A DNA stretch of 64,000 bases, from positions 352,001-416,000 of the forward strand of contig CAVQUB010000013.1 in assembly GCA_963716725.1 (NCBI GenBank), given 5' to 3'. Under the pieces are notes generated by a model, which made no database searches, was not told the origin of the DNA, and worked only from the letters and a program-made list of their open reading frames with translations. A program made the translations under genes and the position numbers. Shown here one piece after another: positions 42,920-62,236 of the stretch; position 1 is the first letter of the stretch; each line of letters opens with the position of its first letter. This DNA is from an uncultured delta proteobacterium. Lineage in GTDB: Bacteria; Myxococcota_A; Polyangia; Polyangiales; Polyangiaceae.

Positions 42920-44740
42920 CTACCGCACTACGAACGCGAAGGGCAGGGTCGCCAGCGCCGTCTCGTCTTGCATGAGCGGCGCGAGCGCGGAGACGAAGGG
43001 GCGCAGGTCGCTCGCGACGGCGCGCGTGAGAGGGGCCCTCGCGCGAGTCACGCGCTCGACAGCCTGCTGGACCGCATTGGCTTCGGCGCTCTCGCCCAAG
43101 AGCAGCGACTCGATCAGACTCTCGTCCCGCCCCACGACAACGACGGGCGCGCGTTCGTCGAGCTTGCCGAGATCGCGCGCGACCGCAAGCGCACGCGACA
43201 GCCCGCCGAGTTCGTCCACCAGCTTCTTCTCGAACCCCTGCCGTCCGCTCCAAATGCGGCCCTCGGCTGCGGTCCGGACGGTGTCGATGGGAAGATTGCG
43301 GCTCTCGGCCACACGCTCGAGAAAGAGCTGGTAGATCTCCTCCATCTGCTTCTTCACGCGCTGGCGGGTTGGGTCGTCCCACTTGGCCAAGGCCGAGAGG
43401 TACGCGGCGCGGGACCCAGCTCCCGGCTCGGGGCTCGCGGGAAAGGTCACGGTGTTGACTCCGTATTCGGCCAGCGCTTCGTTCAGGACTATCTTGCCGC
43501 CAAACACGCCGATGCTGCCCACGATGCTGGTGGGCTCCGCGATCACGCGATCGGCAGCGCAGGCCAAATAGTAACCGCCGCTGGCGGCCATCTCGCCCAC
43601 CGAGGCGACGATGGGCTTCTTCTTCTTGAGTTCGCGCAGCTCGTACCAGATCAGATCGCTGGCGAGTGCCGAGCCGCCCGGCGAGTCGATGCGCAGCACG
43701 ACCACCTTGACGGAGTCGTCCTTTGCCAGCTTGCGCAAGGTCTTGGTCAGCGCCTTGGCGGTGATGCCCCCGCCGTCGAGCAGCCCTCCTGGCGCCATGC
43801 TGATGGCGCCTTCGGCCGGCACCACGGCGATGTGCGGGCGCCCCGCGGCGTTGTCGTCCGCCCCCGACAGGATACGAATGAGCTCGCCGATATCCGGTCC
43901 CTCGGAGGGCTGGCTCTTGGCTCCGAAACCCGTCGTCACGCGCTCCGCCGACGCTCGCCGCTTGGCGTCTTCCAATGCCTGGGATTCGTAGCCCAGCTCG
44001 TCCACCAGGCCACGTTCCTTGGCCTCGCGCGGTGACCATGGCCCGGTCTCCATATCCGCGCGGGCCGAGCGTCCACGCTTGGCGGCCTCGACGCCGTCGA
44101 GCCACGTCGTGCGAATCGACGCCAGGGTCTCGGTGAGCGCCAGTCTCGCCTCGTCACTCGGTCCGTCGCGCGTCAGCGGCTCGGAACCGCTCTTGAATTT
44201 GCCCGCGTGCAGGAAGTCGGCGCTGATCTTCAGCTTGTCGAGCGCCGACTTGAAATACACGGCCTGGCCGGCGATGCCGACCGTGGCGACTTCACCGGCC
44301 GGCGACAGCCAGATCCGGTCGCAGCCCGCCAGCGCGACCCAGGCGCCGGCGTTGTCGAGCCCGTGGGCGTGACAGACCACCGGCTTGCCCTGTTGCCGAA
44401 TCCCAGCCAGCAGAGTCGCGAGCTCATGCGCCCTCGCGAACCCCACGGAGCGTTCTCCCAAACGCACGAACACGCCCTTCGCGTCCTGGTCGTCCCGCAC
44501 GCGCTCGAGAGCTCGTACCAGGCCCACGTAGGTGCGCGCGGCCGGGAGCGGCAGGAAGCCGCCCTCGGTGGACTCGGGAGCTCCCCGCGACAGGTCGATC
44601 TCGACGACTTTGGCGCCGGCCTTTGCGAACAGCGACGACGACGCTCGCTTGCCGACGGTGCCGGTCCAGCTGCGCGGACGGCCTTCGCACGAAAGTGCCA
44701 CGCTCGCGCAGAGCACCAGCGAAAGCGCGGCGCGCTTCAC
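42920..44740 (-). CDS. sppA: Signal peptide peptidase SppA (protease IV, S49)
   Basis: GKFKSGSE, LRIDSPGGSALAS, MAASGGYY, GSIGV, AEGRIWSG. Confidence 0.9.
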   Translation of the reverse strand: MKRAALSLVLCASVALSCEGRPRSWTGTVGKRASSSLFAKAGAKVVEIDLSRGAPESTEGGFLPLPAARTYVGLVRALERVRDDQDAKGVFVRLGERSVGFARAHELATLLAGIRQQGKPVVCHAHGLDNAGAWVALAGCDRIWLSPAGEVATVGIAGQAVYFKSALDKLKISADFLHAGKFKSGSEPLTRDGPSDEARLALTETLASIRTTWLDGVEAAKRGRSARADMETGPWSPREAKERGLVDELGYESQALEDAKRRASAERVTTGFGAKSQPSEGPDIGELIRILSGADDNAAGRPHIAVVPAEGAISMAPGGLLDGGGITAKALTKTLRKLAKDDSVKVVVLRIDSPGGSALASDLIWYELRELKKKKPIVASVGEMAASGGYYLACAADRVIAEPTSIVGSIGVFGGKIVLNEALAEYGVNTVTFPASPEPGAGSRAAYLSALAKWDDPTRQRVKKQMEEIYQLFLERVAESRNLPIDTVRTAAEGRIWSGRQGFEKKLVDELGGLSRALAVARDLGKLDERAPVVVVGRDESLIESLLLGESAEANAVQQAVERVTRARAPLTRAVASDLRPFVSALAPLMQDETALATLPFAFVVR

Positions 44741-46869
44741 GGATTGACCCCCGGCAGATCCGTGGTGTCGACGTGGGGCTTCTCTTCCGGTGGCTTCGCC
44801 GCCGCGGCATCCGTCGCCTTCTCGGGCGGCTTGTCCGGTGGCTTTTCTGAGCCCGAGGGCGGAGGTGAGGGCGCGGTTTCGCCCTGACCGATGCGTTGTG
44901 CGGCGTGCTGCCCGTAGCTCGAACCCGCGCCAGCCTGCTCCAGCACCCGGCGATAGAGCGTGAGCGCACCCTTGCGGTCTCCCGATTCCCATTTCTGATC
45001 CGCGCGGGCCACCAACGCGGGCAGGTAGCTCGGGTTCTCTTTGAGGACCTTGTCGTACATTTTAGCCGCTGCTTCGGGGTCCTTCTTGGCCTTGGCAACG
45101 TCGGCTAGGCCGGCCATCGCCTCGGTGTTGTTTGGCTCATTGGCGAGCACCTCGTTGTAGAGTTGCTCGGCGCGATCGTAGTTGCCCGCCTTGTAGGCCG
45201 AAGCCGCCTGCTGAAGCTTCGCTCGGAAGTCGTTGGTCCCCTTCGGCACCAAGTCGTCGTCGACGGCTCCCCTGCCGGACGTGTCGAGCAGGGGTAGCGT
45301 CGCCGGATCGACTGCGGCAACTTCGGCGCCTCCGTCCACCCCCGCATCTCCCAGCCCGAGGTGCCGTTTGACGAAGTGCGCGAGGTCTTCGTAGAGGGGG
45401 TGCCCCGCGGCGCGCTCCCGTTGCTTCTCCAACTCGCTCTGCGCTTGCTCTGCCTGTCCGGCGCGAACCAGCGCGTAGATCAGCGCTGAACGCGCCCGGC
45501 CCAAGGCACGCTCGGCTTGTGCTGCGCTCCGCAGGCGATCCACCACGCTGCCCCACACAGGCTGGGACTCCGCGAGATCGAGCGCCGCGAGCACATACGC
45601 ATTTTCGCCCGTGGGGCTCGACGCCAGCGGCTTCACCAGAGCACGCGCTGCTTGGAGATCTCCGGCGAGCCGTAGGATGTCCACACGCGACCGCAAGACG
45701 GCGGGGTTGTCGGAAGCCACCGCCACGGCACGGTCGATGGCTTCTTGGGCCTTGCCGACTCGAGCACCGAGCTGCCGGTGAGTCGCCTGCACGAGTTGCT
45801 TGTCGGCGGGGTCGAGCAAACGCAGCCGCAACCAGAGCATGTCGGCTCGCATGGCTTCGAGTCGGGCCAGAGCCGCGAGAACCGTGGCTTCCTTGTCAGC
45901 GAGGACCGAGGCCTTGTCGAGTTCGCCTCGGGCGCCCTCGAAATCACCTTCTTCGAGCTTGCGCTCGGCCTCGAGCAAGAAGCCCGCGACGCGTGCGTCG
46001 GCGCTCGCTGCCGTCGCGGGTGCGGACTTTCGATACTGCTCGAGATAGCGGCGCCCCACCGTGGCGGCGAGCAGCACCGCAACACCCGCCAAGACCAGGG
46101 CCGCGATCCAGCGCGAGCGGAGGCGTCGGGAGTGCGGCTCCGGGAGGTACAGCGACGCTTGCTCCGACCGATAGCTGCCGGCGCGCACGTCACTGGGAGT
46201 CGGCGAGTAGTCGAGGTCCGGCACCGACTCGCGGATCGTGACCTGCTTCGGGGCGGCGGACCCGGCCACGCGGGCCGGCAGCTGGTTGCGCGGCAAGGTG
46301 GGCGGCTCGGCCTCTTGACTGCTGGCTGGGGCTTCGTCGACCAGCATCGTCCCGCCCGACATCACCCGGCGGTCGGCAGTCGGGACATCAGCGGAGGTCT
46401 GGGTCGGTGCCTCGGTGTCCGCGATGTTAGGTGGCAAGACTGGCGGCGGCGGCAGCGCCGCACCGGGCAGCGGTCCGGCGTAGGAGCCAGCGGCGGGTGG
46501 CGCGACGCCTGCCAAGGTTCGCGCTTGCGCGGGCGCGCGCAGACTCGCCCCGGCGCGCCCGTGGAAGAACGGCTCGAGCTCCGCGATGGCTCCCAGCGGG
46601 CGCGGGGGCTGACCGCCGCGGGCGAGCAGGTCTTCGGGCCCGACTTGGCGCTGAGCGATGCCTCGCTGCATCTCGCGCAGCGAGGTGTAGACCAGCTCAC
46701 GCCCACTCGCGGTGCGCACCACCCAGCGCTCGGGCACCGCCTGCTCGCGGGTCGAGTGCACCTTGAATTGGAAGCCACAATTGGTGCACTTGACCGTGGT
46801 CCCACGATCTGAGACCAGCGCGTCGTCGAACTCGTATTCAGTTCCGCAACGACCGCAGCGGACGTCCAT
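44737..46869 (-). CDS. Zinc-ribbon (MJ0042-type) membrane protein with TPR repeats
   Basis: MDVRCGRCGTEY..VKCTNCGFQF, Pro-rich linker, TM, TPR repeats. Confidence 0.8.
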   Translation of the reverse strand: MDVRCGRCGTEYEFDDALVSDRGTTVKCTNCGFQFKVHSTREQAVPERWVVRTASGRELVYTSLREMQRGIAQRQVGPEDLLARGGQPPRPLGAIAELEPFFHGRAGASLRAPAQARTLAGVAPPAAGSYAGPLPGAALPPPPVLPPNIADTEAPTQTSADVPTADRRVMSGGTMLVDEAPASSQEAEPPTLPRNQLPARVAGSAAPKQVTIRESVPDLDYSPTPSDVRAGSYRSEQASLYLPEPHSRRLRSRWIAALVLAGVAVLLAATVGRRYLEQYRKSAPATAASADARVAGFLLEAERKLEEGDFEGARGELDKASVLADKEATVLAALARLEAMRADMLWLRLRLLDPADKQLVQATHRQLGARVGKAQEAIDRAVAVASDNPAVLRSRVDILRLAGDLQAARALVKPLASSPTGENAYVLAALDLAESQPVWGSVVDRLRSAAQAERALGRARSALIYALVRAGQAEQAQSELEKQRERAAGHPLYEDLAHFVKRHLGLGDAGVDGGAEVAAVDPATLPLLDTSGRGAVDDDLVPKGTNDFRAKLQQAASAYKAGNYDRAEQLYNEVLANEPNNTEAMAGLADVAKAKKDPEAAAKMYDKVLKENPSYLPALVARADQKWESGDRKGALTLYRRVLEQAGAGSSYGQHAAQRIGQGETAPSPPPSGSEKPPDKPPEKATDAAAAKPPEEKPHVDTTDLPGVNP

Positions 46870-47034
46870 CGAAGTGCCTCGGAAAAACGGCAAAATACTT
46901 AGCATGGGGGCCGGGGTTCGGGGGACTTTCGGACGGCGCACGTGCCGCCGGCTCAACGCCCGCTTGTCTGGCGCACGGCAGTTGCTAGGCTGGGCACACG
47001 ATTCGGCTCGAAAAGCCGTGCGAGAGGCTTGTTC

Positions 47035-47550
47035 ATGAAGCATGCGCTGCTCTTTGGACTGTCGCTGGTGGGCGCAGCGTTGGTCCCCGGCTGCCCCATC
47101 TATCCGGAAGAACGCCTGTTCTGTGAGTCGAGTCTGGACTGCCCGAGCGGCTACGCTTGTGACCCGGGATCGGGGTACTGCGTCATTCCGAGCGGAACCG
47201 GCGGTTCCACCGGGAAGAGCTGCGACGCGCCCAAAGACTGCGGGTTCAACCAGACCTGTAGCTCGAAAGGCGTCTGCAAGACCGGGGACTGCTCGTTCCA
47301 CGGCTGCGTGGGCGGATACACCTGCGCGGTCGATCAGGGCACTTGGACCTGCGTCTCGGGAAGCGGCGGCACGGGCGGGAACGACGCGGGAGCCGACGCC
47401 AGCAACGACGCCGCCGCGGATTCGGCGTCGGGAGGCGCGGGCGGAAGCGCCGGCGCAGGCGGGTCAGCCGGGAGCGGTGGCGCCGGAGGAACTGGCGGGA
47501 GCGCCGGCGCACCGGCGGGCGGCACGTCGGGCGACGCCGCGCCGGACTGA
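47035..47550 (+). CDS. Small Cys-rich lipoprotein with Gly-rich tail
   Basis: Lipobox VPGC; C-x5-C-x5-C modules. Confidence 0.7.
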   Translation: MKHALLFGLSLVGAALVPGCPIYPEERLFCESSLDCPSGYACDPGSGYCVIPSGTGGSTGKSCDAPKDCGFNQTCSSKGVCKTGDCSFHGCVGGYTCAVDQGTWTCVSGSGGTGGNDAGADASNDAAADSASGGAGGSAGAGGSAGSGGAGGTGGSAGAPAGGTSGDAAPD

Positions 47551-49881: not shown

Positions 49882-52800
49882 ATGCGAAGCTTCTGTCTAG
49901 GGCTCGGGTCAGTCACGTTCGGCCTCTGCGCGCTGATCGCCTGCGGCGGCGATCCGGAGTTCACGAGCAACCCGGCCACCGGTGGCGCGACGACCGGCGG
50001 CGTTGCGGGCACGAGCGGCAACGGAAGCAGCGGCGCTAGCGGCGGCAGCGGTGGACTCGTGCTCGATGGGGGCGGCGGCGATGCCCCCGCCGATGCCGAC
50101 GCCTGCGCAACGATCAGCTGTCCGAACGACCAGCACTGCGATCCCACCACGGGCGCCTGCGTGCCCAACGACTGCACGGCGCTCGGCTGCAAGGCCACGG
50201 AGATCTGCATCACCACCGATGGCGGTGCCTATTGCAAAGACAACTCGTGCACCGGCGACGTGGAGTGTCCCGCAGACCAGTACTGCAACGGCACCGTCTG
50301 TGTGATCGACGTCTGCGCCCCAGGAGACGAGAAATGCCAGGGGCAGGAGCTCTTGGTCTGCAAACCCAACGGCAGCGGCTCGGACAAGAAAGTCTCGTGC
50401 GGCGGAGGGTCACCCTATTTCCAGAGCAAGTGCCAAGACGGCGGCACCGGCAAGGCCGACTGCCCCTGCGAAGACGACTGGGATTGTCCGAACTTCACCG
50501 AGTGCGTCGCGGGGACCTGCGAGGGCACGGGCGTCGCGCCCACCTGCTCGTTGCCGCCCGAGCCGTTCAAGAACGTGCTGCCCGCCAACGAGATCAGCTG
50601 GGGCGGCACCTTCGCCAACCCCAAGGCCGTGGGCAGCCCCTTCCCGGACTCCACGCAGGTGGTGATGACCCCGCTGGTGGTGAACCTGGACGACGACACC
50701 GGCGACGGGGTGATCGACGAGCGCGACTTCCCTGAGATCGTCTTCGCGTCGTTCTGCAATTCGGAATACACCTCGAACGGCGTGCTCCGAGCCATCCACG
50801 GCGGCGGCAAGAACAAGGGCAAGGACTTCTTCGCCAATTGCGGCGGCACCGAGTGGCACGAAGGCGATCCGGCCTTCCCCTCGTGTACCTGCGCAAGCGC
50901 CGAGCTCGACTCGACCGCAGTGCTCGCGGCCGGGGATCTCGATGGCGACGGCAAGCCGGAGATCGTCGGGCTCAGCGAGACGGACGGCATCATCATCTAC
51001 AACAACCTGGGACAGGTCCTGTCCAAGAGCGCGAACTTCAGCCTGGGAGGCGCCGACCCGGCGCCGTCCCTGGTCAACGTCGACAACGCCGGCTTCGCGG
51101 AGATCGTGATTGGCCGCAGCGTTTTTTCGCTGGAGAAGGACGCCAACGGCAAGCTGAAGATTCTGGATCGCTTCGAGGGCTCGCTGATGCACGGCACCAA
51201 TGGACAAGGCCCGGTCTCCTGCGTGGCGAACCTAGTCGGCGACTCGAAACAAGAGATCGTCGCGGGCAGCAGCGTCTACCGCATGGCCACCCCACCCGCG
51301 GGCGCGAAGAAGCGCGCCGACTGCACCGGCAGCGAGACCGGCGAAGCCAAGACTTGGTGCGACGGCAAGCTGGTCGTGGTGTGGGACGGACAGACGGTCA
51401 ACGGCGCCACCGCCCTGCCCAACGGCAACCGCGAGGGCTTCTGCGCCGTCGCCGACGTGCTTGGCGCCAATCAGACCAAGGCCCCGGGCCCCGACAGCCC
51501 CCTCGACGGAACGGCAGAGGTCATCCTCGTCTCCAACGGCCGCCTGTTGGTGCTGAACGGCCAGACCGGCAAGCTGGCGTTGAACCTCGACTCGGCCGCC
51601 GGAACCGCCGGTGGCCCGCCCAACGTCGATGATTTCGACGGCGACGGTTTCCCTGAGATCGGCACGGCCTTCGCGCTGGCCTACGTGGTCTTCGACCTCC
51701 AGGCCACCGCAGCCGAGTGCCCGGCGTGGACGGGCGTCACGGACTCGAACGCCAACAAGCCACGCACGCCGCCGAGCGCGACGTGCCAGAAGGACTCCGA
51801 CTGCGGCAACACGGCCAAGTTCTCGTGCAACGAGTCGACCAGCCAATGCGTGTGCTTGCACAACAGCTGGCGGCGACTGACCGAGGACGACTCGAGCCGG
51901 GTCACGGGCTCGAGCGTCTTCGACTTCAACGGAGATGGCGCCGCCGAGGTCATCTACAACGACGAGTGCAACTTCCGGGTCTACGACGGCTTGAACGGCG
52001 GGGAGTTCTTCAAGCAGCCCAGCGAGAGCCGAACGCGCATCGAGTACCCGGTGGTGGCCGACGTCGACAACGACGGCAACGCCGAGATCGTGTTCTCGAC
52101 CAGCACCGAGAGCGGTTTCTGCTCCGAAAACAAGGACAGCCAGTACAACGCGGGCATCGAGGTGTGGGGGGACGCCAAGGACACCTGGGTCAGCGCCCGT
52201 CGCATCTGGAACCAGCACGCCTATCACGTGACCAACGTGACCGAAGATGGCCACGTCCCCAGCTTCGAGCCCGAGAGCTGGAAGCCCTACAACGGGCGGC
52301 TCTACAACACCTATCGATCGAACCCGCGCTCCAGCGGCGTCGCGCCGGATCTGGTGGTGCAAGCGGTCCAGGTCTCGTCACCCGACGCGACCTGCGGCAA
52401 GCTCTCGAAGAAGCTCGACATCACGGTGCAGATCGCCAACATCGGCGATCTGCGCGTGGGCCCCGGAGTCGTGGTGAGCTTCCAGGGCACCTGGACCGCC
52501 GTACCGCTCACCGAGGCCCTGAAGACCGCGGCGGCCGCGCCGCTCACGGTCGTCATCGGACAGAACATCGAGCCCGGCGAGGTGATCTGGCTCAGCGCCA
52601 GCTACGACGCGGCGAACAACTCACCCGGCGTGCTGCCGGACAAGATCGCCGTCACGGTGGACGAGGGCAACGCCGAGCGCGAGTGCAACGAGACCAACAA
52701 CACGCTCTCCAAGGACGTGAGCGCCGGGGCTCAGTTGCCCGATTTGCGGGTGAAGCTCGGCGCACCGACCTGCCTCCCGGGCCCCACGCCCAAGGTTCCG

Positions 52801-53085
52801 ACCACCGTCAGCAACGACGGCTCGGCACCCGCGAGCAACGTGCTCGTGCGCTACTACGCTGGCGATCCGCAGGCCGGCGGCAAGCCCGTCCACGACGAAG
52901 TGCTCCCCGGACCCATCGCCGCAGGCGGCAACGCGAGCGTCACCGCGACCATGACCAGCTTCCCGAAAGGCGTGAGCGTGCTGATCTACGCCGTGGTTGA
53001 TCCCGACAACGTCATCGCCGAGTGCAACGACGGCAACAACACCGACGACGCGGACTCGAAGGTCACCTGCGGGGGCGTGCAATGA
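49882..53085 (+). CDS. Large lipoprotein with Cys-rich, FG-GAP/VCBS and CARDB domains
   Basis: Lipobox LIAC; DLDGDGKPEI, DFDGDGFPEI, DFNGDGAAEV, DVDNDGNAEI; two CARDB ends (ECNETNN, ECNDGNN). Confidence 0.85.
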   Translation: MRSFCLGLGSVTFGLCALIACGGDPEFTSNPATGGATTGGVAGTSGNGSSGASGGSGGLVLDGGGGDAPADADACATISCPNDQHCDPTTGACVPNDCTALGCKATEICITTDGGAYCKDNSCTGDVECPADQYCNGTVCVIDVCAPGDEKCQGQELLVCKPNGSGSDKKVSCGGGSPYFQSKCQDGGTGKADCPCEDDWDCPNFTECVAGTCEGTGVAPTCSLPPEPFKNVLPANEISWGGTFANPKAVGSPFPDSTQVVMTPLVVNLDDDTGDGVIDERDFPEIVFASFCNSEYTSNGVLRAIHGGGKNKGKDFFANCGGTEWHEGDPAFPSCTCASAELDSTAVLAAGDLDGDGKPEIVGLSETDGIIIYNNLGQVLSKSANFSLGGADPAPSLVNVDNAGFAEIVIGRSVFSLEKDANGKLKILDRFEGSLMHGTNGQGPVSCVANLVGDSKQEIVAGSSVYRMATPPAGAKKRADCTGSETGEAKTWCDGKLVVVWDGQTVNGATALPNGNREGFCAVADVLGANQTKAPGPDSPLDGTAEVILVSNGRLLVLNGQTGKLALNLDSAAGTAGGPPNVDDFDGDGFPEIGTAFALAYVVFDLQATAAECPAWTGVTDSNANKPRTPPSATCQKDSDCGNTAKFSCNESTSQCVCLHNSWRRLTEDDSSRVTGSSVFDFNGDGAAEVIYNDECNFRVYDGLNGGEFFKQPSESRTRIEYPVVADVDNDGNAEIVFSTSTESGFCSENKDSQYNAGIEVWGDAKDTWVSARRIWNQHAYHVTNVTEDGHVPSFEPESWKPYNGRLYNTYRSNPRSSGVAPDLVVQAVQVSSPDATCGKLSKKLDITVQIANIGDLRVGPGVVVSFQGTWTAVPLTEALKTAAAAPLTVVIGQNIEPGEVIWLSASYDAANNSPGVLPDKIAVTVDEGNAERECNETNNTLSKDVSAGAQLPDLRVKLGAPTCLPGPTPKVPTTVSNDGSAPASNVLVRYYAGDPQAGGKPVHDEVLPGPIAAGGNASVTATMTSFPKGVSVLIYAVVDPDNVIAECNDGNNTDDADSKVTCGGVQ

Positions 53086-53399: not shown

Positions 53400-53594
53400 G
53401 TGTCGCGCTCGTCGCCCCACCTCGAAGACGTCCGCGGCGTGCTGCTGGAGCAGTGGGGCTCGATGGATTTCGAGTACGTCGAACGCGTGCTGGCGGCCCG
53501 GATGATCGCGCTCGACGACCCCAGACTTGCGCCGCGCTTCGCCCGCGTCGTGCGGCAAGTGGAGCGACTGCTGGACCAACCCCCACGGCGGTGA
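53400..53594 (+). pseudogene. Possible C-terminal fragment of a nucleotidyltransferase (DUF6036/AbiEii-like)
   Basis: HLEDVRGVLLEQWGSMDFEYVERVL resembles the D.EDV.G.L...LD..YV tail; 64 aa. Confidence 0.3.
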
Positions 53595-53637
53595 CGATTG
53601 CACGTCGTCGAAGTGCTATTCTTCCGGCGAGGCAGCC

Positions 53638-54606
53638 ATGGATCTCGATGCGATGCTGGAGAAATGCGGGCGCGAGCAGTGGAGCGTCGGGGACCTCGAC
53701 TGGAGCGGTCGCCCCCGCGACATGAGCCCCGAGGACGAGATCGCCATCGTCCAGTACTTCACCGACATGGCGGGCATCGAGCGTCTAGCCGGGGCGTTGT
53801 TCGAGGCCCAACGCCGGAACGCTGACGATCCACGGCTCGAGGCTATCTTCAAGAGCTTCGTGAAGGACGAGATCCGCCACGCCCACGCCGCGCAGATGCT
53901 GGCGGACTACTACGACGTGCACCACTACCGGCGCTATGTGACGAGCCCCGCGCTGATGCGATTCGCGCCTCACTTCATGAACTTGATCCAGTACTTGCCG
54001 CCCGAGATCGCCAACACCTACATCACGAGCGGCGAGCTGATCCTGGACGTCGCGCTGCTGCGCTCGATCGACGACCACGTCGACGACGAGATGAGCAATC
54101 GCGCCATGGAACTCATCAACCGCGACGAGTCCCGACACATCGCCGTCGATTTCCGCATGGTCGAACACTATGCATCGAGGCAGTACAAACAGAAGCTGCG
54201 ACAGCGCCCACCGGCACCGCTGCCCAAACGGCTCCGGGCTGCCTGGGCCTTCGTCAGCGTCCTCTATTTCGGGGCGCCGTTCTTCCGGGACGTCTTCTTC
54301 GAGCCCATGCACCACATCGACCCGAGCGGGCGGCGGATTCGCGAAGCGTTCAAACGCATCCAGCTCTTGGGCACCAAGCAAGAGCTCCAAGAGCACCCCT
54401 TCACGCGCTTCATGACCGGGCTGCAAGACGTCTACAACGACCGACCGGCGGTGCGCTTGGTGTTCGGTCGACTGATTCGGCGCATCACCGGAGTCGATGA
54501 GAGCCTGATGGCGCGCCTCTACGATCAGAAAGAAGTCGAACGCTCGAATCGCATGAGCTTCGACGAGCTGGCCGAAGAAGCGCTGTCAGCGAAGTTCGCG
54601 AGCTGA
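53638..54606 (+). CDS. Ferritin-like di-iron protein (desaturase/oxygenase-like)
   Basis: QWSVGDLDW, GIE, DEIRH, GE, DESRH (two ExxH motifs). Confidence 0.8.
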   Translation: MDLDAMLEKCGREQWSVGDLDWSGRPRDMSPEDEIAIVQYFTDMAGIERLAGALFEAQRRNADDPRLEAIFKSFVKDEIRHAHAAQMLADYYDVHHYRRYVTSPALMRFAPHFMNLIQYLPPEIANTYITSGELILDVALLRSIDDHVDDEMSNRAMELINRDESRHIAVDFRMVEHYASRQYKQKLRQRPPAPLPKRLRAAWAFVSVLYFGAPFFRDVFFEPMHHIDPSGRRIREAFKRIQLLGTKQELQEHPFTRFMTGLQDVYNDRPAVRLVFGRLIRRITGVDESLMARLYDQKEVERSNRMSFDELAEEALSAKFAS

Positions 54607-54615
54607 GCCGCGGCG

Positions 54616-57135
54616 TCAGAAGCAGCTCTTCACCGCCGCCACCACGCGCTCGACGTCGGGCACGCTCAGGCACTCGAGGGCCTTGTTGTAGGCGATGGGA
54701 TGGTCGCCGGCGCCCACGCGGACCGGCGCAGCCGCCAGGAGCCCGTGGGCCCGGCCTGCGACCCGCGCCACGACCTCGGCCCCGAACCCACCTCGCAGGG
54801 GGCTCTCCTCCACCGTGACCAAGCGCCGGGTCTTCGCCACCGACTCGATGATCGTCTCGGTGTCGAGCGGCGCGACCGTGCGCGGGTCGACGACCTCGAC
54901 GTCAATGCCCTCTCGTTCGAGCTCCTGCGCGGCCTCGAGAGCGACCTGCACCATGTACGAGAGCGCCACGATGGTCACGTCCCTGCCCGCGCGCACCACT
55001 CGCGCCACGCCGAGCGGAGCCACGTCGTCACCCGACGGGACCGGTCCTTCGGTCAGGTAGAGCAGCTTGTGCTCGAAGAACAGCACCGGGTTGTCGGAGC
55101 GGATCGCCGCCTTCAGCAAGGCGCGGCAGTCTCGCACGGTGCCCGGCGCCACGATGATCAGGCCGGGGATATTCATGAACCAGGACTCGAGGGACTGCGA
55201 GTGCTGCGCCGCCATGCCGAGCCCGGCGCCGCCGGGCGTGCGCACGACCATCGGGATCGAGTACTGCCCGCCGGACATGTAGCGGAGCTTGGCGGCCTGG
55301 TTCACCAAGGGGTCGGCGCAGACGGTGAGGAAGTCCGAGAACAGGATCTCGGCCACCGGACGCAGGCCGTTCATGGCCGCGCCCACCGCACCACCCACGA
55401 TAGCGTTCTCGCTGATGGGAGTGTCGCGCACGCGCCGCTTGCCGAACTCGTCGACCAAGCCGGTGGTCACGGCGAGGTAGCCGCCAAGGGTGACGTCCTC
55501 ACCGAGCAGCACCACCCTCGGATCGCGCTGCATCTCTTCGCGGAGGGCAAGGTTGATGGCCCCGGAGGCGGTCATGGTCAGGGTCTCGCCCAGGCTCGCG
55601 GGCTGGACGCGCTTCGGCTCCGGCGAGAACACATGGGTGACTAGTGCCGAGGGCCCGGGCTCGGGCGAGCGGCGCGCGAAGTCCATGGCGGCATCGACGG
55701 TGGAACGCGCCTCGTCGGCCAAGGTCTTCGAGCCCTCGTCGTCGAGCGTTCCTTCGCCCAAGAGGGCGCGACGGTGGCGAACGCAGGGATCCTTCTGCTT
55801 CCACTCCTCGAGCTCGGTGGCGCTTCGATAGCTCTGCGCGTCACCTTCCATGTGGCCGCGCCAACGATACGTGACGCACTCGAGCAAGGCCGGGCCCTCG
55901 CCCGCGCGCGCCCGCGCCACCAGCTCGATCGCGGCGCGGTGCACCGCGTCGACGTCGTTTCCGTCCACGGTCACGCCAGGCATTCCGTAGGAGGCAGCTC
56001 GGTCCGAGAGCTGCGAGATGTTGGTGGAGCCGGCTCGCGGCGTGAACTCCCCGTAGCCGTTGTTCTCGATCACGAACAATACCGGCAGCTTCCACACGGC
56101 GGCGAGGTTCAACGCCTCGTGGAACATGCCTTGATTGGTGGCGCCATCGCCCATGAAGGCCACCGCGACCAAGTCGCGCTCCTGATGCGAAAACGCCAGC
56201 GCCGCTCCCATGGCCATCAGCGGGGAGCTGCCCACGATACCGTTGGCGCCGATGGCACCGACGCTGGCATCGGTCACGTGCATGCTGCCGCCCTTGCCCG
56301 CACAGAGCCCGGTCTCCTTGCCGAAAATCTCGGCCATCATGCGATCCGGCGGCGCGCCCTTGGCGAGCATGTGACCATGCCCGCGGTGAGTGGTGGCGAT
56401 GACGTCGTCGCGCCGCAGCGCGAAACACACGCCCACGGCCACCGCCTCTTGGCCCGTGCTCAGGTGGATCGCGGCCGTTGGCAAGCCGCCGGCCTGCCAC
56501 TCGCCCGCGAGTCGCTCTTCGAGCTCGCGGATCAACAGCATGCGCCGCAGCATCTCGATGCGCAGCTCACGCGGTGCTGTCGGGAGCTCGGCGTGGGCCG
56601 TGGCAGGCACGACTGGCTCGGTCCCGGTCGGAGGACGGGTGTCCGTCGAACCGCCCGCGGCGGTGGTTCCGCGCTTGCGAAAGCGAGCCAGCAGCCGCCG
56701 CCAGTCGATCCGGCGCTTCTTCACCGCTCCCGCGTCGCGCTCCTCGAGCCCCAGCTCCCGCAGCACCTCGGGGTAGATGCTGAAGGCGGGTCGAATGGCG
56801 GGCAGCAGCTTGAGCGCCCCGGTCACGTCACCGCGCGCCCGCACGCGTCCGGTGGCGATGGCGCGTACGGGGTTCAGCTGGCCGCTCCAGAACTCGTGGG
56901 CGGTGTCCGACGACTGCACCATCTCGACGTCGGCCGGGCCGCTGTCGCCGGTCAAGAAGCGCGCGGGTCGATGCTCGAGATCGAAGGTCAGTACCGATCC
57001 GAGGTCGGGGTATCGAAAGCGGACGACGAGTTCGGTGCTGGTGAGGGGATCGGCGACGGCGGGCGACGCCATCAGGCGCTCGAACAGCTTGGCCATCACG
57101 CGCTCGAACTCGGCTCGGTCGGCGAATTTGGGCAT
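54616..57135 (-). CDS. SCP2-like domain fused to ThDP-dependent dehydrogenase E1 alpha + E1 beta
   Basis: N-terminal FWSGQLNPVRAIATGRVRARGD (SCP2); HRGHGH, GGSMH, GDGATNQG..ENN; DTPISE, QHSQ, FFEHK. Confidence 0.88.
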   Translation of the reverse strand: MPKFADRAEFERVMAKLFERLMASPAVADPLTSTELVVRFRYPDLGSVLTFDLEHRPARFLTGDSGPADVEMVQSSDTAHEFWSGQLNPVRAIATGRVRARGDVTGALKLLPAIRPAFSIYPEVLRELGLEERDAGAVKKRRIDWRRLLARFRKRGTTAAGGSTDTRPPTGTEPVVPATAHAELPTAPRELRIEMLRRMLLIRELEERLAGEWQAGGLPTAAIHLSTGQEAVAVGVCFALRRDDVIATTHRGHGHMLAKGAPPDRMMAEIFGKETGLCAGKGGSMHVTDASVGAIGANGIVGSSPLMAMGAALAFSHQERDLVAVAFMGDGATNQGMFHEALNLAAVWKLPVLFVIENNGYGEFTPRAGSTNISQLSDRAASYGMPGVTVDGNDVDAVHRAAIELVARARAGEGPALLECVTYRWRGHMEGDAQSYRSATELEEWKQKDPCVRHRRALLGEGTLDDEGSKTLADEARSTVDAAMDFARRSPEPGPSALVTHVFSPEPKRVQPASLGETLTMTASGAINLALREEMQRDPRVVLLGEDVTLGGYLAVTTGLVDEFGKRRVRDTPISENAIVGGAVGAAMNGLRPVAEILFSDFLTVCADPLVNQAAKLRYMSGGQYSIPMVVRTPGGAGLGMAAQHSQSLESWFMNIPGLIIVAPGTVRDCRALLKAAIRSDNPVLFFEHKLLYLTEGPVPSGDDVAPLGVARVVRAGRDVTIVALSYMVQVALEAAQELEREGIDVEVVDPRTVAPLDTETIIESVAKTRRLVTVEESPLRGGFGAEVVARVAGRAHGLLAAAPVRVGAGDHPIAYNKALECLSVPDVERVVAAVKSCF

Positions 57136-57138
57136 GGC

Positions 57139-58215
57139 TCACCCCGCAACGGATCGATGCGAGGCCAAGAGTGGCAGGCGCCGGCGCTGCCCGAGCTTCA
57201 CCCACGACTTCACCGGCTCGAGGTTGCCCTCGCACACCTCCGAGATCTCGACGCGATGAATCGATACGCATTTGTGACAGCTCTCGCCGGTCTTGCCCGC
57301 CAGCTCACGCAAGCGCGGGTGGCGCAGCACCTGCTCCAGACTCTGATCCTTCAAATTGGCGATCGGTCGGGTCCCCCAGTGCATGCAGTCGACCACGTCG
57401 CCGTTGGCCTCGATGGGCAGCATGAACTTGGGCCAGTGGCAGCTGTACTCCGGCGGGCCCTTCTGCATCATGCTCATGTGCGTGTTCGAGTTGAGAATGG
57501 GATAACCGCGCTGCTTGAGATCCTTCAAGACGCCGAACGCAGTGGAGAGTTCGGCCTGTGAGGGTGCAAAGCTCGAGATGTCAACGTCGCTCTCTGCGGT
57601 GGCCGCTTCTTCGCGCAGAGCGTTGAAGACACCGAGCACTCCCAGATCCGCCATCAGCTCGGCCATGCGCCGGAGTGTGGCTGTGTCGGCGTTGGCTTTC
57701 TGAAGCGTGCAGACGAATAGGATGGTCTTCTTCGGATCGCGCGCCCGAAGTGCCCGGGTGCCCGCCACGATCTCGCCGAACAGGCCGCGGATCCCGCGAA
57801 TTTCGTCGTGTTTGACCGAAGGGTGGTCGAGCGAGATGCTGACCTTGTCGATGTTATCGGCGACGGCGTCGAGCTTCTTCCGGAGCAAGAAGCCATTGGT
57901 CACCATGTTGCTGATCAAGCCCACGTCCCGAGCGTGACGGACGATCTCCTCGAAGTCGCGATGCAAGAGCGGCTCGCCTCCCCAGATCGAAAGGCCGATG
58001 AATCCGGCGCGGCGCGCGTCGGTGTAGAGCTGCTTGATGGCCGGCGTCGAGAGCTGATCCCGCGGATCGTAGAAGTCCGGATTCCAAGCGCAGAAGCCGC
58101 AGCGTGCGTTGCAGCGTGCGGTGAGGGCATGCACCAAGTAGATCGGGTGTTGGACTCCCAGACGGGCTCCGGCGAGCCGGCGGGTGAGTTCGAAGATATT
58201 CGCTCTTGCGTTCAT
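57139..58215 (-). CDS. Radical SAM protein with C-terminal SPASM/twitch-like Cys cluster
   Basis: CNARCGFC, GGEPL, TNG, SLD; CHWP..GDVVDC, CHKC. Confidence 0.9.
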   Translation of the reverse strand: MNARANIFELTRRLAGARLGVQHPIYLVHALTARCNARCGFCAWNPDFYDPRDQLSTPAIKQLYTDARRAGFIGLSIWGGEPLLHRDFEEIVRHARDVGLISNMVTNGFLLRKKLDAVADNIDKVSISLDHPSVKHDEIRGIRGLFGEIVAGTRALRARDPKKTILFVCTLQKANADTATLRRMAELMADLGVLGVFNALREEAATAESDVDISSFAPSQAELSTAFGVLKDLKQRGYPILNSNTHMSMMQKGPPEYSCHWPKFMLPIEANGDVVDCMHWGTRPIANLKDQSLEQVLRHPRLRELAGKTGESCHKCVSIHRVEISEVCEGNLEPVKSWVKLGQRRRLPLLASHRSVAG

Positions 58216-58817
58216 GACGTGGACCTTTCGAGAAGCGTGGTGAGTTCGGCGACGTGGCGCCGACGAAGCGCCAGGCGCTCGGGCGACAGCGGGTCCTCTC
58301 CCAAGAATGCCCCGAGCACAGGCTCGTAGATGAAGTAGCCGGAGATCGCTCCGAACACGCTGATGGCGAGGTCGCGCGCGACGTCACGATCGCCGAAGTG
58401 CTGTTCGAGGAGCTCGCGCAGCGGGCCAACGATGGCGGCGGCGCTGTCGCGCACGACGTCTCCACGATCGATGAGCTGCCGGAGCAGGAGCCGCTGCAGA
58501 TCTCGTTCTTCGACCAAGAAGTCGAAGTGAGCGAGAGCGAGGCGGACCGGCAACCCGGCTCGGTCGCCTTCTGCAACCGCGGCAGAGAGCCGCTTCAGAA
58601 GGCGGCTCTGGGCATCGGCCACGACGGTGTCGTAGAGCGCCTGCTTGCCGCCAAAGTAGTAGTTGATCATCGCTGCGGTGGTGGCTGCGCGCTCGGCGAT
58701 GGTCCGCACCGAGGCGGCGCCGAAGCCGCTCTCCGCAAACTCGCTCCGCGCCGCCGCCACGATGCGCTCGCGCACGCCATCGCTCGCCGACCCAGGAATC
58801 ATGCTCGAATCAGCCAT
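58212..58817 (-). CDS. TetR/AcrR family transcriptional regulator
   Basis: RIVAAARSEFAESGF..SVRTIAERA..INYYFGGKQALY. Confidence 0.93.
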   Translation of the reverse strand: MADSSMIPGSASDGVRERIVAAARSEFAESGFGAASVRTIAERAATTAAMINYYFGGKQALYDTVVADAQSRLLKRLSAAVAEGDRAGLPVRLALAHFDFLVEERDLQRLLLRQLIDRGDVVRDSAAAIVGPLRELLEQHFGDRDVARDLAISVFGAISGYFIYEPVLGAFLGEDPLSPERLALRRRHVAELTTLLERSTS

Positions 58818-58844
58818 TAAACACTCGTTCTAAACACGTGTTTA
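58818..58844. promoter_or_regulatory. Tandem TetR-type operator
   Basis: Perfect palindrome TAAACACGTGTTTA (58831-58844) plus a degenerate copy TAAACACTCGTTCT (58818-58831) directly before the TetR start. Confidence 0.8.
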
Positions 58845-58886
58845 ACAACCGGCGATGGCAAAGTCAAGCGCCGGACGCGCCGGGCA

Positions 58887-60041
58887 TCATTCGACGGTGA
58901 TCAATGGCGCTGCGAACCCGCCGCCGGCGAAGTCCGCGTCGCGGATCAGCTCGGGCGCGGCGCCCGATCCGCCCAAGTCGAAGGCCTCGATGCTCTGGGT
59001 CGTCGCGGCCAAGACGCGCCCCGCCGGCGACAGCGCGAGCGAGCGGCAGAACCATGGTGACGACTCCACCGGACCGGAGAGCGGAACCATCGATGGTTCC
59101 GCGTCGAGGCGGAGCGGCAGGAGCACCAGGGCGCCGGTCGAAGATCCCCGGGACAAGAGCAGGACGAGCGCGTCCCGATCCGCGGCGACCTCCACGCACT
59201 CGATGCTGCCCTTCGCGCCCGGCACCGTCACGCTGCGGAAGCTCGTCGGCACCGCAGGATCGACCCGGGAGATCTCGGCGATCTCGATCTGCGACCCGTC
59301 CTCGTGCTTCCTCACCAAGTACGCTTCGTCGCGATCCTCAGCGCCCGCGAGACGCGAGCTCGGACGACCCGGGGCTGGGATGGAGTGGAAGTCGATCTGC
59401 CACTGCGAGTCGAAGCGCGCCACGAGCAGTGAGTCGAAGGTCTCGCCTGCGTCGAAGCCGGTACTGCTCAAGGACAAGAGCCGTCCCGGAACGCTCGCCG
59501 ATACGAGGCTCGAGGGGCGATTGATCGCTTGGCTGCCCGGCACCAGGCGCAGAGCGGAGTCGAGCAACGACCAGGTCACCGCCATGTCCTCGGTCAGGAC
59601 CAAGACGTAGGGCGGGAAGGGAAAGAGACGCGCGCCGGGTCCAAGCTCATCGCTCTCGCCCACCAGAGAGAGCTGCCCGTCGACGATGTCGAAGGCTCGA
59701 ACCCTGGAGGTCTCCAGGTCGTTGGGCGAGGTCGCCGCGAGGAGCCGCGAGCCATCGAGCACCAGATCGCCGACCACCTCGCCGACGACGGTCGTCGACA
59801 GCACGTGGCCCGTCGCCGGGTCGAAGGCCGCGACTTGGCTCGGTCCACTGCGAGCGTAGGCGCGCTTCTTCAAACTCGGAGCGACGGAGCTCACAGGAGG
59901 GCCGATGGCGGGGTCCGCAGGGATCGTCGCCGGACCAGGACCCGCGTCGTGTTCTTCAGCGACCGCTCGGAAGGGCTCACCCGCGCAGGCGGTGAGCACG
60001 AGCACACAGAGACTCGCGATGGACTTTCGGATCGGTGGCAT
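58887..60041 (-). CDS. Hypothetical lipoprotein, probably beta-propeller
   Basis: Lipobox LTAC; beta-rich 384-aa ORF. Confidence 0.6.
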   Translation of the reverse strand: MPPIRKSIASLCVLVLTACAGEPFRAVAEEHDAGPGPATIPADPAIGPPVSSVAPSLKKRAYARSGPSQVAAFDPATGHVLSTTVVGEVVGDLVLDGSRLLAATSPNDLETSRVRAFDIVDGQLSLVGESDELGPGARLFPFPPYVLVLTEDMAVTWSLLDSALRLVPGSQAINRPSSLVSASVPGRLLSLSSTGFDAGETFDSLLVARFDSQWQIDFHSIPAPGRPSSRLAGAEDRDEAYLVRKHEDGSQIEIAEISRVDPAVPTSFRSVTVPGAKGSIECVEVAADRDALVLLLSRGSSTGALVLLPLRLDAEPSMVPLSGPVESSPWFCRSLALSPAGRVLAATTQSIEAFDLGGSGAAPELIRDADFAGGGFAAPLITVE

Positions 60042-60616: not shown

Positions 60617-62236
60617 TCAGGGCTTCTTCGCCGGGAGCCACTCGGCCTTGGTGGTGAGCGCGGTGCCAATCTCGACCCGGGTGATGTCCCCCTTGTCGCA
60701 GACGATCTTCACCTTCGGAACGCCCTCGTCCGTGGTGACGACGCTGGCGACCTTGGCGGTCTCGGTGTGGACCTGGCCCGCGCAGAAGGCCATGACCTTC
60801 AGCCCCGCGCTGACGACGCCCGCGCGCAGCGAGGCGACGTCGACCACGACGTTGGCCTTGTCCGCCATGCGCTCGACGGTGGCCTTGCGGCCCTCGACCT
60901 TCTTGACGGTGCCGAGGTGGTAGTCCTTGGCGGGTGCGCGCAGCGGCGCCCACACCACCACGCCCGTCAGCTGGTCGCCCGGCGGCAGCCAGGAGCTGGT
61001 GTCGGTCGGCTTGAGGTTCTTGGCCTCGACCCAGGCGCTGGCCTTCTCGAAGAGCGACGGGCCTTCGGCCGCACCGGGATCTTCTTTGGCGATCAGCGCA
61101 AAGGCCCCGCCCTTGCCCAAAAGCCACGTCTTCTGCCCGTGGTCGAGCTTGCCGGACTCCGCTCCGGCACTGCTCTCTGCGGGCCTCAGTGAGAGGGCAC
61201 CCCAGGCCCATGCCGCGCTAGGCTTCGTCAGCTTGCAGCGCAGGCGCTCGCACTCCACCGCAATCGCCAGCCGCCAACGTGCCATCTCGATCTCATCGGG
61301 CACCTTTTCCCAGCCCGCGACCTTCACCGCGTCGTCGATCTGCTTCTGAACTTCTCCGGGTTTCTTGGCGCCGAGCGCGGTCTTGATCAGCGCCTGGATG
61401 TGCAGCTTGACGGCGTCGCGCACCACGTCGTTGGCGATGGCCCGCTCGGCGGAGGTCAGCTTGCCTTCCTTTTCGAGCGCATCCAGCTTGGCGAAAGCCT
61501 CCTGCCACTTCTGCGCGTCGAGCAGCGGCTTCAGCACGCCGAGACCCCGATGCACCAACTGCTGTTGGAGGACCTTCTCGAGCTTCGCGTAGCTCTCCTT
61601 GTCGAAGGCCGTGGTGGTGTCGGGCGCGGTCAACAGCGAGCGCGCGGCCTCCACGTTTCCCGCCTTCACTTCCTCGGCCAACTTCTGCTCGAGACAGCCG
61701 AAGAGCGCGGCCTTGGTCTTGTCCTTGAGCGCAGTCTTGAAGTGCTGCCTCGCCTTGGCGCGCACTGGATCCGCGACTGCCTTCAGCGCGCTGGCGCACT
61801 TGCCCGCGCTCGCGTTCTCGATGGCCCGCTTGGCGGAGCGTTCGGCCCGCGCATCGTCGATGTCCTGCTGAACGGCTCGCGCGGCCTGGGTGAGATCGAC
61901 ACCGGCGTACAGCGTCGCCTCTTCCGCGCGATCGTCCGCCGTCGAGAAGTCCGAGGCCTTCAGCAGCGCTCGTGCTTCGTCGACCAGGAGCTGCGCGAGT
62001 TCGTCGCGACCTTCCGCCGCCGCATTGGTGTCACGAAACCGCGAGACCAGTCGCCGGTAGGGCTCGGGCTTCTTCTCGGCGCGAGCCCTGGCCAGGAGGC
62101 TTGCGGCGCGCTCCTCGTCACGCTGCGAACCCGCCGGAGTCTCCGATCCGGCCCCGCCGCCGCCGCATGCGGCGACTGTCGACGCGAGCACGCCCACCAG
62201 CCCCAGGACCCTGAAACCCGAAGTGAAGCTCATCAC
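60617..62236 (-). CDS. Hypothetical lipoprotein (helical N-terminus, beta-rich C-terminus)
   Basis: Lipobox VAAC; 539 aa. Confidence 0.65.
   Translation of the reverse strand: MMSFTSGFRVLGLVGVLASTVAACGGGGAGSETPAGSQRDEERAASLLARARAEKKPEPYRRLVSRFRDTNAAAEGRDELAQLLVDEARALLKASDFSTADDRAEEATLYAGVDLTQAARAVQQDIDDARAERSAKRAIENASAGKCASALKAVADPVRAKARQHFKTALKDKTKAALFGCLEQKLAEEVKAGNVEAARSLLTAPDTTTAFDKESYAKLEKVLQQQLVHRGLGVLKPLLDAQKWQEAFAKLDALEKEGKLTSAERAIANDVVRDAVKLHIQALIKTALGAKKPGEVQKQIDDAVKVAGWEKVPDEIEMARWRLAIAVECERLRCKLTKPSAAWAWGALSLRPAESSAGAESGKLDHGQKTWLLGKGGAFALIAKEDPGAAEGPSLFEKASAWVEAKNLKPTDTSSWLPPGDQLTGVVVWAPLRAPAKDYHLGTVKKVEGRKATVERMADKANVVVDVASLRAGVVSAGLKVMAFCAGQVHTETAKVASVVTTDEGVPKVKIVCDKGDITRVEIGTALTTKAEWLPAKKP

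Follow-up and report, generated by a model that had tools for sequence, protein, structure and literature searches.

A TetR-headed operon of a Polyangiaceae genome that couples a radical SAM gene to an SCP2-E1alpha-E1beta fusion

What does an E1 enzyme do when it is fused to a lipid-carrier domain and encoded next to a radical S-adenosylmethionine (rSAM) enzyme? In textbooks, E1 enzymes are components of megacomplexes that depend on lipoyl groups. The question is raised by a 64,000-nt stretch of an uncultured Polyangiaceae genome (contig C13:352001-416000, hereafter the window, within which coordinates are counted unless another contig or locus is named), where three open reading frames (ORFs) follow each other on the minus strand in the order tetR, rSAM gene and SCP2-E1alpha-E1beta fusion gene. 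The original prediction saw in this operon an inducible lipid pathway that had not been described. All its parts belong to known superfamilies, and their combination indeed matched no described pathway, as neither an SCP2-E1 fusion nor its pairing with an rSAM enzyme was found in the full-text literature, subscription journals lying outside that coverage. Two levels are to be distinguished in what follows: the more general point is a family of lipid-tethered E1 enzymes without E2, and its coupling to TetR and rSAM is a handle specific to Myxococcota.

Operon structure and operator

The three genes were closely packed. The gene tetR (P0003; 58212-58817, minus strand), coding for a TetR-family repressor of 201 aa, overlapped the rSAM gene (P0002; 57139-58215, minus strand; 358 aa; Radical_SAM, PF04055, 65 bits and SPASM 33.1 bits in Pfam) by the 4 nt ATGA, the junction reading ...TCATGAAC. 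The rSAM gene was separated by only 3 nt (TGA-GCC-ATG) from the fusion gene (P0001; 54616-57135, minus strand; 839 aa), which was delimited by its ORF and Pfam domains. Both junctions had been predicted and were confirmed by direct reading of the sequence. The tetR, rSAM and fusion genes are translationally coupled, and their treatment as one compact unit headed by tetR is supported.

A 14-bp perfect palindrome (TAAACACGTGTTTA; operator site 1, 58831-58844) with the pattern TAAAC-N4-GTTTA lay in the putative promoter (the original prediction had noted a palindromic operator upstream), and an imperfect copy (GAACGAGTGTTTAA on the minus strand; operator site 2, 58817-58830) abutted the ATG of tetR. 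A candidate -35 box, TTGACT, was found at 58862-58867 (minus strand), and TTGAC occurred at the same distance from the operator in six related loci (L008, L009, L011, L012, L015 and L031). The last six bases of site 1 formed a -10-like hexamer, TAAACA (minus strand), 17 nt from the -35 box. A strict sigma-70 scan of positions 54200-59100 called no promoter because this hexamer ends in A and not in T, so the operon promoter is proposed as a candidate from its conserved, near-consensus elements. The half-sites upstream of tetR were kept in nine orthologous loci while the four central bases varied, and a tandem second site, GAAC-N4-GTTTA, accompanied them in six of the nine (L008, L009, L015, L016, L031 and L040). 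This pattern reads as the phylogenetic footprint of a presumably autorepressed promoter. The single match to TAAAC-N4-GTTTA in the window (0.03 expected), at the operon itself, was also the only one in the whole assembly (35 contigs, 7.9 Mb, 84% complete); the regulon therefore appears to consist of this operon alone.

The repressor is assigned to the TetR family by its N-terminal domain (TetR_N, PF00440, 47.2 bits) and by the predicted palindromic operator at its own promoter, conserved in the nine loci; the C-terminal profile TetR_C_29 scored 21.2 bits, under its Pfam cut-off. Orthologues with 45-78% identity stood at the head of the same operon in other loci. In its N-terminal TetR helix-turn-helix, its presumed autoregulation through a palindromic operator over the promoter and its hydrophobic-substrate context, the operon resembles TetR-controlled units of lipid catabolism of the KstR, FadR and PsrA type. 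It differs from them in the scores of its regulator, far under every equivalog cut-off (19 against 280 for KstR and 22 against 200 for FadR in NCBIfam) and in a regulon that seemingly comprises a single operon.

The fusion protein and its missing E2

The N-terminus of the fusion (residues 20-110; 56806-57078, minus strand) scored 28.4 bits against PF02036 (cut-off 21.3), and a phmmer search of the PDB with the first 134 residues matched the SCP2-like domain of peroxisomal multifunctional enzyme 2 (MFE-2; E = 3e-4). By profile it is thus an SCP2 sterol/lipid carrier domain, for which lipid binding is predicted. It was followed by a linker, basic at first and then Pro/Thr-rich (residues ~131-190; 56566-56745, minus strand), that was unconserved among relatives: a 16-sequence alignment had no invariant column from L125 to L191 and two nearly invariant ones (P168 and L184). 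These ~60 residues between SCP2 and E1 alpha are probably flexible. The E1 alpha part, which binds the diphosphate of thiamine diphosphate (ThDP), spanned residues 197-495 (55651-56547, minus strand; E1_dh, 277.5 bits), and the E1 beta part comprised Transket_pyr (residues 521-693) and Transketolase_C (709-831) with 147.3 and 123.3 bits in Pfam (54643-55575, minus strand).

The ThDP motif GDGATNQG...ENNGYG and the alpha histidine GH428M aligned with human pyruvate dehydrogenase (PDH) E1alpha (1ni4_A), where the histidine motif reads GHSMSD, and the beta histidine AAQH645SQ aligned with the same motif of human PDH E1beta (6cer_B). All three were invariant in the family. We take H428 and H645 to be the catalytic histidines, also used for lipoyl transfer. 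With the ThDP motif, the three domains and both histidines, the protein is an E1 of the alpha/beta type of 2-oxoacid dehydrogenases.

The alpha2beta2 E1 of PDH and acetoin dehydrogenase (1ni4/6cer, Pyrobaculum 1ik6, Thermus 1um9) has the same E1_dh, Transket_pyr and Transketolase_C domains, ThDP motif and histidines, and the nearest solved structures of the E1 part were PDH-type E1 subunits. Unlike these, the fusion holds alpha and beta in one chain with an N-terminal SCP2 on the ~60-residue linker, and the family-specific THRGHGHM stands in place of the usual YR.HG. Its scores also missed the cut-offs of the PDH equivalogs, with 326.2 against 393.85 for E1alpha (TIGR03182) and 348.6 against 454 for E1beta (NF008854). 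Full-length relatives were 45-91% identical to the fusion, and the family formed at least 120 clusters at 90% identity, drawn from Myxococcota, Chloroflexota, Acidobacteriota, Desulfobacterota and Spirochaetota. Public names were generic ('SCP2 sterol-binding domain-containing protein', '2-oxoisovalerate dehydrogenase E1 component' and, for the neighbouring enzyme, 'radical SAM protein'). The genome carries a second fused E1alpha/beta gene without SCP2, a 718-aa frame on contig C32 (G000:C32:267472-269496), whose product was 32% identical to the fusion over residues 188-828.

The window held neither an E2 (PF00198) nor an E3 (PF02852) match, in line with the original prediction, and PF02852 had no match anywhere on C13. 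Relatives were collected by a degenerate-pattern scan of one genome per species, which gave 572 fusion relatives; the best 80 loci were kept for analysis. Of these, 61 began with the SCP2 part (tblastn), and the other 19 were truncated or had classical split E1alpha/E1beta genes. When searched with E2 by tblastn, none of the 61 SCP2-fusion loci had a match within 10 kb, compared with 12 of the 19 split-E1 or non-SCP2 loci. Of five fusion-bearing genomes only two had a PF00198 match; searches of the isolate Desulfoluna spongiiphila AA1, of a 3.4-Mb single-chromosome metagenome-assembled genome (MAG) with a type-B cassette (defined below) and of a Spirochaetota MAG (completeness not given) gave none. 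Both the fusion loci and some carrier genomes thus differ from PDH and acetoin dehydrogenase, whose complexes have E2 and E3 encoded with the E1 or in its genome, and the fusion was not grouped with such complexes. We read it as an E1 that works without E2. The tethered SCP2 and the absence of an adjoining E2 from 61 loci point to a ThDP lyase or decarboxylase that works by itself on hydrophobic substrates.

Two further observations concern possible partners and relatives. In both cultured Desulfoluna species (L055, 2070-5628; L079, 1774-5254), a genus in which D. limicola ASN36 carries the fusion besides D. spongiiphila AA1, a dihydrolipoamide-dehydrogenase-like flavoprotein, ~34% identical to an E3, was encoded with a sigma-54 activator about 5-8 kb upstream of the fusion, with no E2 nearby. 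A ThDP enzyme inducible by acetone, from Desulfococcus biacutus, was weighed as a possible relative and set aside: its description assigns it to COG0028 (acetolactate-synthase type) and not to E1 (PMC4103992).

The radical SAM enzyme and its linkage to the fusion

The CX3CX2C motif at C35, C39 and C42 was invariant in an alignment of both rSAM subtypes found beside the fusion, and places the enzyme in the radical SAM superfamily, whose folds its structural model fitted. Exactly four further cysteines were invariant (C259, C277 in GX4C, C313 and C316), and C328 varied. A full SPASM domain has the seven-cysteine motif CX9-15GX4C...CX2CX5CX3C...C and two auxiliary clusters; the four invariant cysteines therefore indicate a single, twitch-like auxiliary cluster rather than a full SPASM, and the SPASM label overstates the enzyme. 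The best match by sequence and by fold was BlsE (7vob; Foldseek TM 0.66/0.72), followed in the Foldseek ranking by SkfB, SuiB, DesII, PqqE, viperin, MoaA and anSME. BlsE and DesII (8hzv) share with the enzyme the CX3CX2C core, a C-terminal four-cysteine site and the lack of a peptide-recognition domain. The rSAM enzyme was, however, only ~20% identical to BlsE, and it is encoded together with a TetR and a lipid-tethered E1 rather than with sugar-nucleotide genes. All its NCBIfam scores were far under the cut-offs (PTO1314 85.8/306, PqqE 80.9/381, HpnH 52.9/225, BlsE 52.4/400, MftC 43.1/265), which leaves it outside the curated families, as had been expected.

The AF2 model of the enzyme (pLDDT 84) had only one helix, predicted for residues 7-19, before the core, and so appears to lack the recognition element (RRE) used on ribosomally synthesized and post-translationally modified peptides (RiPPs). 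No precursor gene, RRE/PqqD-like domain or family score identified the enzyme as a RiPP maturase of the PqqE, MftC or sactisynthase kind. The 4-nt overlap and 3-nt gap leave no space for a peptide gene, which makes a small-molecule substrate the economical reading. BtrN is a twitch-type rSAM enzyme that acts on a small molecule. The adenosyl-hopene transferase group HpnH/DUF3463 was rejected as a family for the enzyme (TIGR03470, 52.9 against 225; DUF3463 unmatched in Pfam), although a language-model atlas placed it near HpnH/DUF3463-type clusters, which serves as a lead only. A complex prediction for the rSAM enzyme with the SCP2 part (residues 1-135) scored 0.00, a value that, with controls not run, speaks neither for nor against binding.

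Sixteen of the 61 SCP2-fusion loci encoded an rSAM homologue. In 11 of them it was 45% or more identical to the window enzyme (type A) and in five 25-31% (type B), and 13 of the 16 loci had a TetR homologue ahead of the rSAM gene. Type A genes lay 7-121 nt from the fusion. In an even sample of 401 Myxococcota genomes (rSAM threshold E <= 1e-30), the rSAM enzyme was found in 15 genomes and the full-length fusion in 10, with only two fusion candidates scored per genome, so second copies may be missed. All 10 fusion genomes had the rSAM enzyme, in nine of them on the same contig and 7 to ~1200 nt away. The expectation that the trio would be conserved elsewhere held in so far as it recurs in these related genomes, and failed in so far as it does so in only part of Myxococcota: the trio is real and recurrent, but modular. 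The closest relatives of the TetR, rSAM and fusion proteins belonged to MAGs labelled Polyangiaceae, Myxococcales or Sandaracinaceae. Near-identical DNA was present in biofilter, wastewater, sediment and groundwater metagenomes in a listing of sequencing runs, which contained no RNA sequencing run with the operon.

A FastTree tree was built from the window fusion and from 60 locus fusions that reached 700 aa or more, without the truncated or shorter rows; it separated a Desulfobacterota/Spirochaetota clade from a Myxococcota/Chloroflexota/Acidobacteriota clade. The rSAM-linked fusions fell into two Myxococcota subclades, one of nine rows, all linked and including the window (support 99), and one in which six of twelve rows were linked. 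Each subclade contained both rSAM subtypes, so the linkage has been kept or re-made while fusions diverged to ~55% and rSAM enzymes to ~28% identity (25-30%). Chance adjacency is hard to reconcile with such a pattern.

Clustering and Pfam annotation of all ORFs of the 80 loci gave no universal neighbour of the fusion. The same-strand flanking gene was often that of a carbonyl-making enzyme, a position held by the rSAM gene in Myxococcota. It was a short-chain dehydrogenase/reductase in L036, L045, L069 and L071, an NAD-epimerase/3beta-HSD-like gene in L034, L035, L038, L039 and L042, a saccharopine-dehydrogenase-like gene in L017, L018 and L020, a Glu/Leu/Phe/Val dehydrogenase in L073, and a class-III aminotransferase, often with an amino-acid permease, in L051, L061, L065, L072 and L014. 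In type-B cassettes (L013, L024, L058, L078, G165, G362, G271) a gene of ~350 aa without Pfam family lay between the rSAM and fusion genes. The sister cassette formed of TetR, rSAM, barrel and fusion genes (L024, L058, L078, G165, G362, G271) has the same families in the same order as the window, where, in contrast, the rSAM enzyme is of the other subtype (25-30% identical), the 3-nt gap holds no barrel gene and the operon has no ketone carboxylase.

The ~350-aa protein had no match in a permissive Pfam scan. Its model, of moderate confidence (pLDDT 70.7, four sequences), suggested a barrel fold matching AttH (2ich), kievitone hydratase (7a0t), 25-phosphosteroid lyase (9g4c) and fungal Diels-Alderases. 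Going by the entry titles, we assume that these enzymes act on prenyl or isoprenoid termini. A relation of the barrel protein to the DUF2804 protein was sought and not found (hhalign probability 0.2); a DUF2804 protein was encoded directly ahead of the fusion in a Desulfobacterales MAG (L063, 8986-9990). The longest cassette (L024, 1036-12529) comprised seven genes, TetR, rSAM, barrel, hydantoinase A, hydantoinase B, acetone-carboxylase gamma and SCP2-E1 fusion, so that a complete AcxABC-type ketone carboxylase set was wedged between barrel gene and fusion; a gene for MeaB, the B12-mutase chaperone, was divergent upstream. A search of the window's own genome for acetone carboxylase gamma (PF08882) gave no match, and is void as its control was likewise silent. 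A second, independent meeting of ketone carboxylase and E1 was seen in a Binatia locus (L085, 2021-14655), where an AcxABC-like carboxylase lay beside a split E1alpha/E1beta-E2-E3 cluster.

A small protein of 155 aa, c12, accompanied type-A operons in 7 of the 80 loci and also occurred in G059 and G273. A permissive Pfam scan gave DUF4334 at E = 0.18 only, and the atlas placed it among unnamed Myxococcota/Actinomycetota clusters, with GXWXG/DUF4334 at 0.88, again a lead only. The c12 gene of the own genome lies on another contig (G000:C12:282796-283227; L089, 7764-8237), 45 nt from a divergent aldehyde dehydrogenase gene and near genes of a creatininase family and of acyl-CoA synthetase type; the operator pattern was not found upstream of this unlinked copy.

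The surroundings of the operon in the window were less conserved. Its true upstream neighbour was a same-strand gene (58887-60041, minus strand) for a weakly BamB/PQQ_2-like beta-propeller of 384 aa, with ~60% identity in L008 and L009, which places the operator in a 69-nt same-strand intergenic gap. The ORF at 58855-59610 (plus strand), seemingly divergent from tetR, was discarded as a shadow at the place of this conserved gene. Further upstream lay the gene of a 539-aa protein without Pfam family (60617-62236, minus strand; ~80% identity), likewise conserved only in L008 and L009; long plus-strand ORFs over both genes were shadows. As their conservation stopped at these two closest loci, the propeller and 539-aa genes were rejected as operon members. 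The same applied to a convergent 359-aa ORF (53527-54606, plus strand) ending 9 nt from the fusion stop, which had no homologue in related loci and only faint AurF/ferritin-like di-iron matches (E = 0.004). Farther downstream were a 1067-aa protein that carries FG-GAP repeats and, at its C-terminus, a CARDB domain (49882-53085, plus strand), typical of myxobacterial surface proteins, and an S49 (SppA-type) peptidase of 690 aa with a zinc-ribbon/TPR protein of 854 aa (42920-47301, minus strand). The last two ORFs overlap at 44737-44992, so one start was probably called too far upstream.

Competing readings and what the system may do

The reading tentatively favoured here, at somewhat less than an even chance, is an inducible two-step module, independent of oxygen and of E2, that would act on a hydrophobic small molecule. 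A hydrophobic inducer would release TetR. The rSAM enzyme would then abstract a hydrogen from the SCP2-held substrate without O2 and oxidise or rearrange it, leaving a carbonyl beside an oxygenated carbon (an alpha-hydroxyketone or a 2-oxo group). The E1 part could attack this new carbonyl with ThDP and, as a lyase or decarboxylase that does without E2, cut the C-C bond beside it; the products would be a small ketone or aldehyde and the shortened remainder, an acyl or aldehyde fragment. The carbonyl maker of relatives would be not the rSAM enzyme but an NAD-dependent dehydrogenase, amino-acid dehydrogenase or aminotransferase. For the lipid substrate originally proposed, the SCP2 domain is the one piece of evidence in the window, and barrel proteins of lipid or isoprenoid type in sister loci speak for it indirectly.

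A number of observations weigh against this module. The fixed two-enzyme unit first proposed was not upheld, as 39 of the 61 fusion loci lacked an rSAM gene in 1.2 kb or more of upstream DNA (six others had no upstream DNA), and fusions without rSAM were widespread in Chloroflexota, Acidobacteriota and Desulfobacterota. Five Myxococcota genomes had the rSAM enzyme without a full-length fusion at the same threshold: TetR-rSAM was followed by unrelated genes in G285 and G259, and by c12 and then the contig end in G059, while rSAM-c12 without fusion was seen in G273 and an rSAM gene amid unknown genes, also without fusion, in G349. In G109 rSAM and fusion genes were on different contigs. Each enzyme therefore occurs alone, and neither needs the other. 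Which of the rSAM and E1 steps comes first is a guess. Foldseek gave matches that are not specific among twitch/SPASM enzymes, and many of them are peptide maturases. The ketone carboxylase was found in one of 16 rSAM-linked loci only, and the barrel protein (profile A3) was not found in the own genome, 84% complete. The neighbours in the Desulfobacterota clade suggest amino-acid-derived 2-oxoacids, not lipids. Finally, the beta part passed the cut-off of the PDH E1-beta subfamily NF006667 (340.4 against 321), and the own genome has E2 and E3 genes outside the window, with PF00198 matches on C15, C12, C11, C8 and C13 (at 42 kb), so that an E2 could serve in trans.

The last points are those of a rival reading that we consider unlikely but still of some weight, in which the fusion is an ordinary E1 paralogue docking on the housekeeping E2/E3 core and converting a hydrophobic, branched or long-chain 2-oxoacid to acyl-CoA, with SCP2 for solubility and the rSAM enzyme supplying or tailoring the oxoacid. 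It would account for the conserved ThDP motif and for both catalytic histidines, as those of lipoyl transfer are kept, for the E1-beta subfamily score, for the E2 genes on C15, C12, C11 and C8, and for the aminotransferases, Leu/Val-type dehydrogenase and amino-acid permeases beside Desulfobacterota-clade fusions. The retained Transketolase_C fits as well, being the domain that in E1beta contacts E2. It is harder to square with an E2 within 10 kb of 0/61 fusion loci against 12/19 split-E1 loci, with PF00198 unmatched in three of the five fusion-bearing genomes, and with the missed equivalog cut-offs for both E1alpha and E1beta; moreover, the own genome already has a complete E1alpha/E1beta/E2 locus (C15). 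A biosynthetic role seems distinctly unlikely. Here the E1 would act as a carboligase that joins an acyl anion derived from a 2-oxoacid to a lipid or keto-sugar acceptor, giving an acyloin, in resemblance to the E1-like enzymes of acyl-branched sugars, and the rSAM enzyme would tailor a product that may be a membrane lipid, signal or secondary metabolite. Carboligation by E1 and other ThDP enzymes is reported (PMC7696235, PMC9306805). The structural relatives BlsE and DesII tailor sugar-derived natural products, and NAD-epimerase/RmlD-like enzymes of sugar-nucleotide type are among the relatives' neighbours. No synthase, glycosyltransferase, acyltransferase or exporter was conserved with the trio, however, and only two small barrel-type proteins recur; the ketone carboxylase inserted in L024 points to breakdown, and a presumably autorepressed TetR with a single genomic operator is met more typically in inducible units for catabolism or detoxification.

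Two other alternatives concern the pairing itself. If adjacency merely reflected a common inducer or genomic drift, the genes would be co-regulated and functionally unlinked, which is consistent with each being found without the other in several genomes; this we regard as very unlikely, since adjacency (gaps of 7-121 nt) was kept across fusions 55% and rSAM enzymes 25-30% identical, in two subclades and two subtypes. Marginally less probable again is that the rSAM enzyme is a protein maturase of the anSME or LipA kind that modifies the fusion itself, for example on its tethered N-terminal arm or in its active site. Many twitch/SPASM relatives (SkfB, SuiB, anSME, PqqE) do modify peptides or proteins, and the coupling is tight, with the rSAM gene within 1.2 kb in nine of the ten sampled Myxococcota fusion genomes. 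Most fusions of other phyla, though, have no rSAM enzyme and yet keep all motifs, TetR-rSAM pairs occur where no fusion was found, and the rSAM model is predicted to have no RRE-like domain.

Within the favoured two-step module, a more specific proposal, which we hold to be quite improbable, has the family shorten the side chains of isoprenoid-type lipids (such as sterol, hopanoid, carotenoid or polyprenyl chains) by their terminal isopropyl or isopropylidene unit, in an undescribed way that needs no O2. It is suggested by the barrel fold and by the one carboxylase insertion, in L024. The terminal carbon would be or become a tertiary alcohol, made in the sister cassette by the hydratase/lyase-like barrel protein; the rSAM enzyme would oxidise the neighbouring carbon, and the SCP2-tethered E1, without E2, would cleave the resulting tertiary alpha-ketol to acetone and a side chain shorter by three carbons. 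In L024 the carboxylase might take up the acetone. No triterpene cyclase (PF13243) turned up in the own genome, 84% complete, so that nothing there hints at a sterol or hopanoid substrate made by the organism itself.

In Myxococcota, the fusion is repeatedly coupled to an uncharacterised rSAM enzyme with a single auxiliary cluster under a dedicated TetR. If the favoured module is right, the operon would be a compact three-gene system in which lipids undergo anaerobic C-H activation and then C-C cleavage. Little of this chemistry has been charted in anoxic sediments, groundwater and wastewater, the places where DNA of the operon occurs. Should the clipping proposal be true, SCP2 on its linker would be a swinging lipid carrier comparable to a lipoyl arm. 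The conserved operator and its TetR would offer a direct route to the inducer, and hence to the substrate.

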